The position numbers and the translations under genes were made by a program. Positions 2,841-7,447 of a stretch of DNA of 27,347 bases are shown one piece after another. Origin of the DNA: Candidatus Thorarchaeota archaeon (GTDB lineage Archaea; Asgardarchaeota; Thorarchaeia; Thorarchaeales; Thorarchaeaceae); assembly GCA_016839445.1 (NCBI GenBank), contig JAEOUG010000097.1, forward strand, positions 1 through 27,347, in the 5' to 3' direction. A model generated the notes under the pieces. The model saw nothing but the letters and a program-made list of their open reading frames with translations. It did not search any database and was not told the DNA's origin. Each line of letters begins with the position of its first letter. The stretch's first letter is position 1.

Positions 2841-3701
2841 CTAGAAGAGACCGTGCTTCATAGATGTCTGGCAGTCACAGCCTGCGTCCTTCGGGATGTT
2901 CGTTATCATTTCAAAGGTGAGCTTCCTGACTCGGTCAACGTTCTGTGACATTGTTCTCAGGACCATCTCGTGCGTTACAACTTCGTCACCGTGAACGTCG
3001 TAGTCGGTTGGCATCGAGATGTTCACGAAGCAGATACCCGCCTCCCGCGCAAGAGCCGCCTCAGGATAAGCAGTCATGCCGATAACCTCCCAACCTTGTC
3101 CGTGGAAGAAGAGTGATTCCGCCCGCGTCGAAAACCTTGGACCGTTGATGCAGACGTACGTTCCCTTCTTGTGAATCTTGTACTTCAGTTCTTTCGCCGT
3201 GTCTGCGGCGACTCTCCTCAGTTCAGGACAGAAGGGCTCAGCGAAGGGAAGATGCGCAATTGGTCCTCCCTCAAAGAATGTGTCCTTTCTCGTTCCGAAT
3301 GTCCTGTCGAAGAGCTGGTCTGCGAGCACGAATTCACCAAGCTTGATCTTGTCGGGCTGCAGACTTCCACAGGCCGCAGGGCTGATGATTCGCTTAACGC
3401 CCAGTGCCTTCATTCCCCAGATGTTGGCTCTGTAGTTGATTGCATGCGGAGGAATTGTGTGTCCTCTACCATGTCTCGCTAAGAATGCAAATGTTCTCTT
3501 CTTGACAGAACCTACAATGAAATTGTCAGATGCTGCGCCGAAAGGCGTGAACACCTTGACCTCAATAGGGTTCTCAATCACGGTAGCGTCGTAGTTGCCG
3601 CTGCCTCCAAACATCCCAATTTCCGCTGGTAGTAGCCTGTGAAGCTCATCCGCTTTGCTTCGATCTACAGGGACTACCGACAGTTTCGCCTCGAATGCCA
3701 T
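2841..3701 (-). CDS. mtnP: S-methyl-5'-thioadenosine phosphorylase
   Basis: GGSG, TPFG..SD, ARHG.GH..PPH.INYRANIW, GPRFSTRAES, IGMT..PEA.LARE and TDYD motifs; ATG 3701 preferred over TTG 3707. Confidence 0.92.
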   Translation of the reverse strand: MAFEAKLSVVPVDRSKADELHRLLPAEIGMFGGSGNYDATVIENPIEVKVFTPFGAASDNFIVGSVKKRTFAFLARHGRGHTIPPHAINYRANIWGMKALGVKRIISPAACGSLQPDKIKLGEFVLADQLFDRTFGTRKDTFFEGGPIAHLPFAEPFCPELRRVAADTAKELKYKIHKKGTYVCINGPRFSTRAESLFFHGQGWEVIGMTAYPEAALAREAGICFVNISMPTDYDVHGDEVVTHEMVLRTMSQNVDRVRKLTFEMITNIPKDAGCDCQTSMKHGLF

Positions 3702-3789
3702 AGTCAACTCAACCTCGTGTTCTCTGATGGCCCTTCCCCATACTCCCTAAAATAGATGGTGACCGCGAGGTGTTCTGGCCAGCCTTTGT

Positions 3790-4455
3790 CTAGTTCTTGA
3801 GCTTCCAGTAGTTGTCAAGCGGGTAGACAATCTTGTTGAGGAAACCCATGTGTGCCTTCACCTTGGAGAGCGCATCATCGCTGAGCACAATATTGTTGTA
3901 CTCACGCAGGTGTTTCTTGAGCTCCATTGTGCTCATCTCGTCCACCTTCTCTCCTTCGAAGATCTTCAGAATGAGGGCGTTCAGGTCTTCGTAGAAGTTC
4001 CACGGCCATATCTCCCACGCCCAACTGACCTCCACTCCAAAGTAATCGGGCACAAACTTGGAGCCTGCTATGTGCATCAGAGTTGCACTCTTCACGTCGC
4101 TTGGGCCCTGCTCTCTTATGTGATTCACTGCCATGGTAAGGCTCTCACCGGTGTCAGTGATGTCATCCACGACCAGGACGCGCTTACCCTTCACGTCCCC
4201 AGTAAGAGGAACTGTCAGTTTCGCCTTACCATCCTTTGTGGCTGTGACGCCCCAGTGATCTACCTTCACGGAGTAAAGCTCCTTCACGCCGAGGAGGTCA
4301 CACTGAAGCCGCGCGTGGACCCATCCGCCACGCGCCACGCCAATGATCACATCAGGTTTCCAGCCGGACTGCCTGATTTTGATTGCAGTCTGGTAGGCGT
4401 AATTCCATATATCATCGAAGTCCAAGACGTAGCATAGAGGACCTTTGAGCTCCAT
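3790..4455 (-). CDS. Type I phosphoribosyltransferase (archaeal purine hypoxanthine/guanine/xanthine PRTase-like)
   Basis: IIGVARGG loop, PRPP-binding VLVVDDITDTGESL, PDYF...W..WPW. Confidence 0.9.
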   Translation of the reverse strand: MELKGPLCYVLDFDDIWNYAYQTAIKIRQSGWKPDVIIGVARGGWVHARLQCDLLGVKELYSVKVDHWGVTATKDGKAKLTVPLTGDVKGKRVLVVDDITDTGESLTMAVNHIREQGPSDVKSATLMHIAGSKFVPDYFGVEVSWAWEIWPWNFYEDLNALILKIFEGEKVDEMSTMELKKHLREYNNIVLSDDALSKVKAHMGFLNKIVYPLDNYWKLKN

Positions 4456-4560
4456 CTTTGGTCAGCACCGAGTCGGAACCGGAAGATTCGAGTTAAAAGT
4501 ATGCCCATTCGCTCCTCGCAAGAGTAATAGGCTGCGCAGTGCAGTCCACCGCCGATTTCC

Positions 4561-4875
4561 ATGTCTGACAAAAAGGAATGTGTTGGCAAGGAACCTCGTA
4601 AGGTGGTGGCTCGTGTCATCAGCCAGAAGGGGTACTGCGCCATCGGCCACAAGGTTGGTGATGTAATCGAATTCGACCACTTCGGCGTCAAGGGCGACAT
4701 CTGTATCAACGCTCTGTTCACAATGCTACCGGTTGTCTATGCCATGATGCACAACTCCTACTTCCCTTGGGCTGAGGATCAGTGCAAGGAGCTTCACGCA
4801 TGCCCCGACCCGAAGAATCCTGTCGTCTTCGAACTGGACCGGTCTCAACCCATGGATCGAAAGGCCTCCGGCTAG
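4561..4875 (+). CDS. TIGR04076-family small Cys-containing protein
   Basis: KG.C..GHKVGD.IEF....G.IC..A...P ... ACPDP.NPVVFEL signature; gttaaaag TATA-like motif near 4492. Confidence 0.85.
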   Translation: MSDKKECVGKEPRKVVARVISQKGYCAIGHKVGDVIEFDHFGVKGDICINALFTMLPVVYAMMHNSYFPWAEDQCKELHACPDPKNPVVFELDRSQPMDRKASG

Positions 4876-5705
4876 ACAGAGACCTCCAATACCAGGCTAT
4901 CGAAGACTCCTGGTTCGTACTCCAATAGGACGTCGAACTCATCGCCTCGCGAGACAGGCACTGGTGTGCCAAGAGGAAGAAGAAGTTCCCTCCAACCATC
5001 CTCCATGGACAGACGGATGTCCTCCGTTAGATGGGCCTCGAACATGGCGAGCATGCCATGAATGGTACCTGACTCAAGGATCTCGAATCGAAGTTGGCTA
5101 CTTACTCTCTCCATGCTCAGGGACTTGAAGTCAAACGAAACGACTCTGGCCAGGTTGCCAAGGTCTCGACAATCGCCTCTTGAGGCGGTCTGCACTGTCT
5201 TGGGGAAGTCAAGGTCTGCAACACCGAATCTCTTCCAAATGCGTGGACACTCTACAGGAAGGGCAAAGACAGTCGACGAGGCGGGGAGTAATACTCCGTT
5301 CGGTTTCAGGATCTTCTGAGTAGCATGGATTGACGCAGGCACCTGCTGTTCAATTAGCATCATAGAGGAGAGCATCTCGCATATCACAACGTCTGCCTTG
5401 TCGGACGGAACACAGTCTGCGTAATGGCTCTGTCTGAATTCTATTCGATGTTCAAGGTTGTTCAGTGCGGCTGCCTTCTTCGCGTACGCGATGGACTCGT
5501 CGTTCACGTCTATTGCCAGGACTCTCTCTGCGCCTGCTCTAGCCGCCATCATTGCCAAGACCCCAGTTCCTGTGCCAAGGTCCACGACGAAATCGCCCTC
5601 TTGCACAGTCTGCTCTATCGCCCGTCTGAACTTCTCAAGACGAGTCCTGTGACTGAGGAGACTGACAGCATGCAACATTGAGAAGGGCGTTGCGTATTCT
5701 TTCAT
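4872..5705 (-). CDS. Class I SAM methyltransferase with PRMT-like architecture (Rossmann domain plus beta-barrel)
   Basis: Motif I VVDLGTGTGVLAMMAARAGA, double-E loop VICEMLSSMMLIE, LKPNGVLLP, barrel motif GTIHGMLAMF, and DGWRELLLPL at the THW-loop position. Confidence 0.85.
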   Translation of the reverse strand: MKEYATPFSMLHAVSLLSHRTRLEKFRRAIEQTVQEGDFVVDLGTGTGVLAMMAARAGAERVLAIDVNDESIAYAKKAAALNNLEHRIEFRQSHYADCVPSDKADVVICEMLSSMMLIEQQVPASIHATQKILKPNGVLLPASSTVFALPVECPRIWKRFGVADLDFPKTVQTASRGDCRDLGNLARVVSFDFKSLSMERVSSQLRFEILESGTIHGMLAMFEAHLTEDIRLSMEDGWRELLLPLGTPVPVSRGDEFDVLLEYEPGVFDSLVLEVSV

Positions 5706-5809
5706 GGCAGAATTTCCCCTAGCGTAGGCTACTTATAACACAACTGACGCCAAACGCCTTGATGTGCAGTTCTGAAAAGATACCAGAGGATTGCGAGGTT
5801 CACTAATCA

Positions 5810-6970
5810 TTGCCGGAAGACAGCATCGATCAAGCTAGGAGGCTCTTGGAAGAAGGCAGACCCGAGGAGGCAATAGCCCTTCTTGAGCCAGTTGTAGCTG
5901 ATGACGATGAAGATGCAGAAGCACTTGTCATCCTTGGTATGGCCTATGTGCAAGCTGAGCTCTGCTCCAAGGCAATCGAGGTTCTGGAGCTAGCAGACGA
6001 ACTCGTCGAGGACCACTGCGTCGTGAAGATGTTTCTTGGGCGAGCCCTTTTGACTGAAGGGCAATTCGCCTATGCTGAGGAAATGCTTCGAGAGTCAATC
6101 AGACTGGACGAGTCGGAGCCAGCCGCATGGGCAGATCTTGGCCGCATCCACTATAGGCAGCAGGAGTACAGGAAGGCCCTCGAGCTTCTGAATGAGGCCA
6201 GTCACAGGTTTCCAGATGATGTTTCTGTTGCCGCCCTCCATGCATTGTCGCTGTATCGACTGGGTGACTACACTGCCGCGACGGAGGAGTGGGCCCGGGT
6301 CCATCGACTTCAACCTGAACTCATGGCTGCGATATCGAACTATGCGTATCTGCTATTGATTCAAGATAGATCGTTTGAGGCAACCCCCTTTGTCGGTGCG
6401 GCGAACACGCTTGATTCCGAAGACTATCGTTCTCGAATACTGCTAGGTGAGCTCCGCTTCAAATCGGGTGATCTTGATGGGGCCGCCGAGGCCTTTCTCA
6501 GCGTTCTCGAAAAGGACCCGGAGAACATCGAGGCGCTCGCCAAGATGGCTCTAATTATGCACCTTGCGACGGATGAAGCGATGAGTCGGGAGTACCTCAG
6601 CAGAGCCGAGATGCAACTCGGTGAGAATCCCGAGTCCTGGAGAGGGCTCTGTGGCATATACCCCCTCCTCGGCATGACGTCAGAGTATCTGGACTGCCTG
6701 CTTCTGTGGGCGGAGTCTGATGCCGGAGCTGCCACGCCTTGGGTCCTGTTGGCAGGAGAGTACCTGCGTATGGGCGACCATGAGAAGGCTCAAGAAGCAT
6801 GGGATACAGTCTTTGAGCTCAGAGGTTACGTCAAAGTCAGGTGTCCCCTCTGCAGTGAGGAGGAGCGCCTTCCGTATGACAGAAGTGAGGGGTTTGACGT
6901 GTTCAAAGACACTACATGTAGTCACTGCGGGCGCACCCTCTCCATGCCTAGGGGTCTGGCCCTTAACTGA
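5810..6970 (+). CDS. TPR-repeat protein with C-terminal zinc ribbon
   Basis: Multiple TPR units followed by CPLC-x21-CSHC near the C-terminus; TTG start with gaggt SD. Confidence 0.88.
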   Translation: MPEDSIDQARRLLEEGRPEEAIALLEPVVADDDEDAEALVILGMAYVQAELCSKAIEVLELADELVEDHCVVKMFLGRALLTEGQFAYAEEMLRESIRLDESEPAAWADLGRIHYRQQEYRKALELLNEASHRFPDDVSVAALHALSLYRLGDYTAATEEWARVHRLQPELMAAISNYAYLLLIQDRSFEATPFVGAANTLDSEDYRSRILLGELRFKSGDLDGAAEAFLSVLEKDPENIEALAKMALIMHLATDEAMSREYLSRAEMQLGENPESWRGLCGIYPLLGMTSEYLDCLLLWAESDAGAATPWVLLAGEYLRMGDHEKAQEAWDTVFELRGYVKVRCPLCSEEERLPYDRSEGFDVFKDTTCSHCGRTLSMPRGLALN

Positions 6971-6982
6971 GGGGTCTTCGAA

Positions 6983-7447
6983 ATGACAGAGAGGAGGTAT
7001 CCATCTCATCCTGTTCCGGGGGTAGGAGCAGTTGTGGTGGGCAAGAGAGGTGTCCTTCTTGTGCGTCGCGACAAGGATCCTGGCGAAGGTCTCTGGAGCA
7101 TTCCTGGCGGAGGAGTTGAACTTGGCGAAACGCAGGAGGAGGCAGTCCTTCGCGAGGTCAGAGAAGAAACCGGCGTGGACTGTGTGGTTGCACGATTCAT
7201 GACAACGGCAGATCTCATCACTCCAGACTCGTCTGGCTCGATAGAGTTCCACTTCATTCTGAACCACTATCTGGCCCGCGCTCTGTCAGAGAACACCAGG
7301 CCAGAGATTCCCGAAGCCGAGGTTGGATGGTTTCACCCTGATTCTCTACCCGACGACATTGTCAATCAAAGAATCGTCGACCTAATCCTCTCGGTAAGAG
7401 ACACCGCTCTGAAAATGATGGACGAGGCAGGCAATACGTCTGAATAA
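6983..7447 (+). CDS. Nudix hydrolase (ADP-ribose pyrophosphatase/MutT-like)
   Basis: Complete Nudix box GGGVELGETQEEAVLREVREETG; N-terminal RRYP..P..GVGAVV. Confidence 0.95.
   Translation: MTERRYPSHPVPGVGAVVVGKRGVLLVRRDKDPGEGLWSIPGGGVELGETQEEAVLREVREETGVDCVVARFMTTADLITPDSSGSIEFHFILNHYLARALSENTRPEIPEAEVGWFHPDSLPDDIVNQRIVDLILSVRDTALKMMDEAGNTSE

Follow-up and report, generated by a model that had tools for sequence, protein, structure and literature searches.

The stretch of DNA considered here (hereafter the window) is the 27,347-nucleotide contig JAEOUG010000097.1 of Candidatus Thorarchaeota archaeon (GenBank assembly GCA_016839445.1), an Asgard archaeon of the order Thorarchaeales. At 4872..5705 on the minus strand it carries a methyltransferase gene, whose product an initial annotation, made from the sequence alone, had taken for a minimal eukaryote-like protein arginine methyltransferase (PRMT) rather than an enzyme of the PrmA type. 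The list of open reading frames (ORFs) and the translation bear out the gene itself, as a single frame of 277 amino acids with an ATG start fills these coordinates, stop codon included. It is a single-copy gene in the 2.9-Mb genome, which is 89.8% complete. PRMTs and the arginine methylation that they carry out count as a hallmark of regulation in eukaryotes, with RNA-binding proteins, histones and Sm proteins as targets. The thorarchaeal protein, for which a complete PRMT fold is predicted, shows purifying selection on its catalytic residues, occurs in nearly all of the genomes sampled from one Asgard order and is systematically mislabelled.

Sequence motifs and catalytic anatomy

The conservation of the protein was assessed in an alignment of 41 homologues with 49–71% identity (A1), to which every statement of invariance in this text refers. 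Its invariant residues are T6, P7, F8, R22, D42, G44, G46, G48, E110, M111, L112, S113, E119, Q121, G137, P141, F167, Q172, G217, F222, G237, W238 and P244. All motifs listed in the initial annotation were recovered by regular expressions on the translation, although two of their spacings had been counted one residue short: the N-terminal helix reads H...LL and not H..LL, and the barrel motif GTIHG....F and not GTIHG...F. The helix running from H12 to I30 is HAVSLLSHRTRLEKFRRAI, and the remaining patterns lie at W157..F160...DLDF167, 213–222 (GTIHGMLAMF) and 236–245 (DGWRELLLPL). The features are collected in Table 1.

The two glutamates of the double-E loop, E110 and E119, have the i/i+9 spacing that had been claimed for them, and in alignments made with profile hidden Markov models and phmmer they fall on the two glutamates of PRMT8 and of Arabidopsis PRMT10 (AtPRMT10). 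In established PRMT structures this pair is the guanidinium-binding device. The segment dGWrelflPle of the family profile aligns with tHWKQTVFYLE of PRMT8, and the D-G-W loop, correctly singled out beforehand as non-canonical, is therefore the THW loop with threonine replaced by aspartate and histidine by glycine, its tryptophan being retained in all homologues. The first two residues of this loop differ among other PRMT types as well. At the N-terminus, Y4-A-T-P-F8 and H12...L16-L17..R22 align with YFCTY and H..DMLSDRVR of AtPRMT10 (3r0q), in a part of the predicted structure where the predicted local distance difference test score (pLDDT) is only 55–75 over the first 20 residues. The aromatic residues, the histidine and the arginine of the AtPRMT10 motif are kept, while its methionine is replaced by leucine and its aspartate by histidine or glutamine: L16 falls on the Met, and H19 (His or Gln across the family) on the Asp, of the segment K-D-M-L-S-D. 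Q121 aligns with the methionine that lies two residues past the second glutamate of PRMTs. In type I PRMTs the N-terminal aspartate pairs with the THW histidine, and two methionines shape product specificity.

The region corresponding to the dimerisation arm comprises the 33 residues between the strand that ends at E152 and the strand that starts at 186. Relative to the family profile PRMT8 carries insertions of 6 and 7 residues here, which makes the thorarchaeal arm about 12–13 residues shorter. Its conservation ranks with the highest in the family, R159, F160, P168, T173, D181 and L182 each being kept in at least 90% of the sequences and F167 and Q172 in all of them. As judged from the alignments the arm is shortened and not vestigial; the truncation seen in the initial annotation is borne out, whereas its view that only W..F...DLDF remains does not hold, the conserved region of residues 153–185 being kept.

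Table 1. Coordinates in the window of the methyltransferase gene, of the features within it and of the adjoining TPR gene (TPR, tetratricopeptide repeat; SAM, S-adenosylmethionine; residue numbers are those of the translation)
Feature	Coordinates	Strand	Basis
PRMT-fold methyltransferase gene (P0001), 277 amino acids; stop codon 4872-4874	4872..5705	-	ORF, confident model, full-length PRMT structural matches, single copy
N-terminal helices, residues 4-30: YATPF (for YFxxY), H12...LL....R22...F..AI (for H..ML.D..R)	5616..5696	-	Regular expression; T6, P7, F8, R22 invariant
SAM-binding motif I VVDLGTGTG, residues 40-48	5562..5588	-	D42, G44, G46, G48 invariant; Rossmann methyltransferase Pfam matches span residues 28-143
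Double-E loop E110-MLSSMMLI-E119, followed by Q121 at the type I Met position	5349..5378	-	E110, M111, L112, S113, E119, Q121 invariant
LKPNGVLLP, residues 133-141 (equivalent of PRMT LKPGG.IFP)	5283..5309	-	G137, P141 invariant; L133, K134 at least 90%; aligned to PRMT8 LKPGGLMFP
Shortened dimerisation-arm region, residues 153-185, one short helix at 154-158	5151..5249	-	Predicted secondary structure, pLDDT 87-95; alignment to PRMT8
C-terminal beta-barrel domain, residues 143-277	4875..5279	-	Predicted strands, structural alignment to PRMT barrels
D236-G237-W238 loop at the THW position, DGWRELLLPL	4971..5000	-	G237, W238, P244 invariant; D236 at least 90%
Spacer of 104 bp between methyltransferase and TPR genes; presumed shared promoter region	5706..5809	.	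ORF coordinates
TPR protein, 386 amino acids, C-terminal CxxC...CxxC zinc ribbon; candidate substrate adaptor	5810..6970	+	TPR Pfam matches

Predicted fold and the comparison with PrmA

An AlphaFold2 model built from the 41-sequence alignment has a mean pLDDT of 90.4 and a predicted template-modelling score (TM-score) of 0.86, with no segment below a pLDDT of 50. In it a Rossmann half precedes a C-terminal half made up almost entirely of beta-strands, which span residues 143–152, 172–174, 186–192, 201–209, 213–225, 240–251, 256–263 and 272–276. The check that had been proposed with the initial annotation, namely such a model searched with Foldseek, thus finds the PRMT beta-barrel present. Among the 46 Foldseek rows listed against the PDB all are PRMTs, with E-values of 6e-24 to 1e-20 and TM-scores of 0.72–0.84 on the query length; they include TbPRMT7, mouse PRMT7, PRMT2, PRMT6, PRMT3, CARM1, PRMT1, PRMT8, PRMT9 and PRMT5. 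VIA-align, a method independent of Foldseek that was run against 48,161 representative chains, places 15 PRMT entries at the top (Z 21.5–27.9, root-mean-square deviation 2.5–3.8 Å, 258–275 of the 277 residues aligned) and then drops to PrmA (3grz, Z 16.4, 138 residues aligned; 1ufk, Z 15.9, 137 residues aligned) and other Rossmann methyltransferases. As the barrel is present, and as PRMTs match over the full length whereas PrmA matches in the Rossmann domain only, the predicted architecture is that of a PRMT and not of PrmA. None of the PRMT types stands out as the nearest by structure, the Z-scores being tied within about 2.

Sequence searches point in the same direction. With phmmer, 199 chains of the PDB match at E≤1; every one of the 60 listed is a PRMT, and AtPRMT10 ranks first (3r0q, 2.5e-19), a similarity well outside what chance would give. 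The alignments with TbPRMT7 and CARM1 reach residue 223–227. The profile of the 41 members aligns end to end with PRMT8 (profile positions 21–270, 97 bits) and PRMT1 (90 bits). With the eukaryotic enzymes of solved structure (PRMT3 2fyt, TbPRMT7 5eku/4m38, CARM1 5is8, PRMT6 5lv4/4c06, PRMT2 9qca, PRMT5 4g56, AtPRMT10 3r0q, PRMT1/8) the thorarchaeal protein shares the fold of the whole chain, Rossmann domain and beta-barrel alike, as well as motif I, the i/i+9 double-E loop, LKP.G..P and a tryptophan at the THW position. It differs from them in being about 30–60 residues shorter than the solved cores, in an identity of only 16–25%, in its shorter arm and in the substitutions described above, namely D-G-W for T-H-W, H/Q19 for Asp, and L16 and Q121 for Met. 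PrmA (3grz, 1ufk), on the other hand, has only the class I Rossmann SAM-binding domain in common with it; the N-terminal domain of PrmA is missing from the thorarchaeal protein, which has the beta-barrel and the double-E loop in addition.

Many names in databases imply a ribosomal protein L11 methyltransferase of the PrmA type, an identity that we consider practically dismissed. The case for it draws on the top Pfam match, PrmA (PF06325, 3.2e-17), and on those names of relatives. This match, however, covers only positions 153–240 of the 296 in the profile, which is its generic Rossmann part, and none of the NCBIfam models is close to its threshold: the PrmA equivalogs reach 32.6–49.6 bits where 183–327 are required. 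The cut-off of PF06325 is low (22 bits). Seven places in this genome pass it, none of them outside profile positions 153–264, and the model has matches in 14 of 14 control genomes. The low cut-off and the generic Rossmann stretch that it matches account for the misnaming. At the level of architecture the PrmA identity is refuted by the overlap in the Rossmann domain only and by the PRMT barrel of the model, and the gene is accordingly predicted to encode a compact enzyme with the full PRMT architecture.

The initial annotation had also foreseen that automated pipelines would mislabel the protein, and the names attached to 119 listed relatives, counted by hand, agree with this: 17 are called "50S ribosomal protein L11 methyltransferase" by NCBI and 18 "predicted RNA methylase" by JGI, as against five that JGI names PRMT. 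The named relatives among those listed come from metagenome-assembled genomes of Candidatus Thorarchaeota or Promethearchaeota. We take the JGI name "predicted RNA methylase" to be that of COG4076. The COG4076 superfamily domain is reported on two apple PRMTs in PMC11165092, so that this label is not in conflict with a PRMT fold.

Phyletic distribution and prokaryotic relatives

The 301 genomes sampled from the phylum include 159 with matches at E≤1e-10, and full-length orthologues are found only in the order of the window. The family to which the window belongs (f1) has a match in 71 of its 76 genomes, 68 of them intact, without stops and at E≤1e-109, and the other three partial or split (G155, G173, G233). 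The five genomes of f1 that lack a match are 62–92% complete. The sister family f2 has the gene in its one sampled genome. Elsewhere in the phylum only G297, G240 and G100 match beyond the Rossmann part (E 2e-31 to 8e-26). Two of these, G297 (L017:1757-3010) and G240 (L018:1893-3218), which belong to other families, display a second and seemingly unrelated PRMT-like architecture in Asgard archaea. Their proteins, of 417 and 441 amino acids, combine the loop SEPISN.LLEG, in which the glutamate pair is spaced i/i+8, with an S/T-W loop, and they extend at the C-terminus by about 130 residues. They group with the prokaryotic homologues that have a THW loop.

A search of 1.84 billion proteins with the family profile recovered 254 representatives at E≤1e-30. 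The best matches beyond the family reach 131–173 bits and so outscore the eukaryotic PRMTs of solved structure, none of which exceeds 105 bits. They are full-length prokaryotic homologues of the THW type (P0129, P0131, P0141 and others), of the same overall architecture as the thorarchaeal protein and about 300–400 amino acids in length. They differ from it in having the canonical motifs H..ML.D..R, SE.LG.FG..E and THW.Q, and many of them pass the Pfam model PRMT_C. The named relatives of one such protein come from bacterial metagenome-assembled genomes of Aminicenantia, Omnitrophica, Vicinamibacterales, Acidimicrobiia and Petromonas, and several are called "L11 methyltransferase".

A different group of relatives constitutes a compact prokaryotic PRMT-fold family (P0156, P0157, P0176, P0221, P0249 and others) from Nitrosomonas, Massilia, Undibacterium, Methylobacter, Planctomycetota and Methanobacteriaceae. 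These proteins share with the thorarchaeal enzyme a double-E loop in the style of C/M-E-M-x-x-T/S-x-L-I-x-E-x-Q and a short or absent arm. At 25–35% identity to it they are all uncharacterised, some have N-terminal extensions of about 130–150 residues, and the THW position varies among them (SEW in the P0156 type, TW in P0176, and no tryptophan in P0157, P0223 and P0249). A search from P0157 gave 14 matches, of which a single distant one bears a function name. Pattern scanning of species-representative genomes found 333 relatives of this family. Versions with a CEM..T.LI.E.Q loop are common in cultured Betaproteobacteria (Nitrosomonas, Massilia, Duganella, Undibacterium, Methyloversatilis) and occur in Methanobacteriaceae as well; in Methyloversatilis universalis the compact core forms the C-terminal part of an 805-residue protein. 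The loci of seven bacterial and Methanobacteriaceae relatives were heterogeneous, with no conserved operon and no non-ribosomal peptide synthetase (NRPS), dioxygenase or TPR gene.

The phylogeny that had been called for was computed with the prokaryotic homologues; the trees hold no eukaryotic PRMT sequences, and their roots are arbitrary. A FastTree analysis of 148 rows, which left out representatives outside 260–450 amino acids and eight fragments, unites the 15 rows from the order into one clade (support 99), enclosed with ten representatives lacking the THW loop (support 95). A quick IQ-TREE search of 60 hand-picked rows comprised 12 thorarchaeal sequences (10 of the 41 in A1, with P0121 and P0122), 13 of the compact family, six named relatives from 80 loci, 27 of 62 THW-type homologues and the two other Asgard proteins. 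It separates the thorarchaeal, compact and named sequences from the THW-type and other Asgard ones with a support of 96 in the SH-aLRT (approximate likelihood ratio) test. In both trees the deep split with the best support thus leaves the compact family together with the thorarchaeal sequences and apart from the THW type.

These trees and scores place the thorarchaeal family as a Thorarchaeia-specific branch of a prokaryotic radiation of PRMT-fold proteins. The epithet "eukaryote-like" in the initial annotation accordingly fits the fold and fails for the affinities of the sequence, given the scores above and the grouping with the compact family of bacteria and Methanobacteriaceae. On present evidence a direct ancestry of the eukaryotic enzymes is disfavoured for this family. 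The significance for eukaryogenesis is limited, because the nearest relatives are bacterial and methanogen proteins and not eukaryotic PRMTs.

Gene neighborhood and proposed function

The genes of the region are, in order, a CN-hydrolase, an MTAP-like phosphorylase, a phosphoribosyltransferase (PRTase), a 104-residue Cys-rich ORF, the methyltransferase on the minus strand, the divergently transcribed TPR gene, a Nudix gene and a membrane protein. The methyltransferase and the TPR gene are next to each other and divergent at all 12 loci compared from close relatives and all 16 from further genera (28/28), including the f2 locus, in which the MTAP-like and PRTase genes no longer adjoin. The four cysteines of the zinc ribbon are invariant in 26 of 26 orthologues of the TPR protein. 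Both proteins evolve faster than their neighbors: the median identity within the genus is 87.1% for the PRTase and 91.3% for the small Cys protein, as against 79.7% for the TPR protein and 66.5% for the methyltransferase. In the lineage of the window the latter two fall to 59.6% and 53.2%, respectively, with the PRTase at 81.9% and the small Cys protein at 89.4%. This parallel acceleration, seen in a single lineage, may reflect co-evolution.

TPR modules are tied to PRMT cores elsewhere. PRMT9 has TPRs, and in Oceanospirillum beijerinckii a protein named only "tetratricopeptide repeat protein" (P0252/P0385; WP_169449736.1, WP_051228322.1) joins a TPR array to a complete PRMT core, with PRMT_C at 61.6 bits and above its cut-off. 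In this bacterial protein the repeats are fused N-terminally to the core, whereas in Thorarchaeia there are two divergent genes and the TPR protein has an added C-terminal zinc ribbon. The divergent pairing, the parallel divergence and the Oceanospirillum fusion together make the TPR/zinc-ribbon protein a reasonable candidate for an adaptor.

We regard SAM-dependent methylation of arginine in a small number of proteins, possibly chosen by the TPR/zinc-ribbon partner, as the most likely function, and as a probable one. On this view SAM would donate its methyl group to a guanidino nitrogen of arginine, in a single protein or in a few; the guanidinium would be gripped by E110 and E119 in the manner of the eukaryotic enzymes, and the co-diverging neighbor would recruit the substrate. 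Whether as a monomer or a higher oligomer, the enzyme might form monomethylarginine (MMA) or the asymmetric or symmetric dimethylarginine (ADMA, SDMA); the monomeric, monomethylating enzyme suggested in the initial annotation is a conjecture among these possibilities. If the acceptor is indeed arginine, the protein would serve as a model PRMT that is very small, is probably easy to express and has an unusual loop at its active site. It would also make arginine methylation in archaea and bacteria accessible to study and allow hundreds of annotations to be corrected. A more specific version, which we put forward tentatively and think somewhat doubtful, is that Thorarchaeia possess a minimal two-gene arginine-methylation system, made up of the 277-residue PRMT with its D-G-W loop and short arm and of a rapidly co-evolving TPR/zinc-ribbon adaptor that picks the substrates. 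This would be the first archaeal protein arginine N-methyltransferase system and would imply adaptor-guided arginine methylation in prokaryotic relatives of eukaryotes, though with an enzyme from the prokaryotic branch.

Several observations weigh against the function proposed as most likely. The Pfam models of the barrel stay below threshold (PRMT5_C reaches 27.1 bits where 30.3 are required, PRMT_C 14 where 27 are). With D-G-W in place of THW and H/Q19 at the position of the partner aspartate, both members of the Asp-His pair are altered and the active site is non-canonical. The nearest relatives are the uncharacterised prokaryotic proteins described above. The whole region is syntenic in the compared loci, for which reason the adjacency of the TPR gene is by itself weak evidence. 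No paper on a PRMT from Asgard or other archaea turned up in our literature search, though supplementary tables of Asgard genome papers may list the protein. A plausible substrate did not emerge either from 11,740 six-frame ORFs of the genome, scanned for at least four RG dipeptides within 30 residues. The scan gave seven matches, one of them a genuine glycine- and arginine-rich (GAR) tail at the end of a NifX-like protein (contig C51:2722-3255). This tail was rejected as specific evidence of a substrate, as RG tails are present in 16 of 16 orthologues from f12, f13 and f16, families without an enzyme of the thorarchaeal type, and the protein therefore lends no support by co-occurrence.

An acceptor other than protein arginine, be it a peptide, a small-molecule nucleophile, another side chain or RNA, is the main alternative, and we consider it rather unlikely. 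PMC3417536 (Aravind and colleagues) describes the bacterial PRMT homologues as a radiation of "peptide methylases", some acting in antibiotic biosynthesis and lying inside antibiotic synthetases, which makes such an acceptor possible. The non-canonical THW loop and N-terminal aspartate position of the thorarchaeal protein are in keeping with it, as is the variability of the loop in the sister compact group (SEW, TW or no tryptophan), and the COG-derived name "predicted RNA methylase" would suit RNA in particular. Against this, both i/i+9 glutamates are invariant in the thorarchaeal family and are kept across the sister group. There is moreover no biosynthetic gene cluster at the locus in the window or at the 28 orthologous loci, where the neighbors are MTAP, PRTase, Nudix and TPR genes, nor are there NRPS or dioxygenase genes around the seven bacterial and archaeal relatives.

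The same non-canonical loop, together with the fast evolution of the protein relative to its neighbors (66.5% against the 87–91% of the PRTase and the small Cys protein), would also suit a PRMT-like scaffold without catalytic activity, a "prozyme" whose sole role is to bind a partner such as the TPR protein, much as the inactive subunit of Trypanosoma brucei PRMT1 does. We judge this to be very improbable, since the SAM-binding glycines, both glutamates and the loop tryptophan are invariant in the 41 sequences, which is not expected of a dead enzyme, and since the genome has no second PRMT-like gene that could act as the active partner.

Three metatranscriptome runs were compared with positions 3700–7100 of the window. 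They gave one 170-base contig from marine sediment (X5), identical to 6484–6653 in the TPR gene and possibly due to carry-over of DNA; no contig fell on the methyltransferase, which is no evidence either way on its expression. The 104-residue Cys-rich ORF (4561-4875, plus strand) has no Pfam match and is convergent with the methyltransferase gene, the end of which it overlaps by 4 bases. It is 85–94% identical in 8 of the 12 closest loci and present in one of the 16 loci from further genera (L032, 85%).

The NifX-like protein found in the RG scan (G000:C51:2722-3255, plus strand, the same as L036:2722-3255) is a 177-residue member of the NifX/NifB-like family (PF02579, 1.9e-25) that ends in a Gly-rich, RG/RGG-rich tail. 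Besides the orthologues mentioned above, 10 of the 14 f1 loci, as extracted, have the tail. After the gene come another NifX-like gene and two genes for MinD/4Fe-4S ATPase-like proteins.

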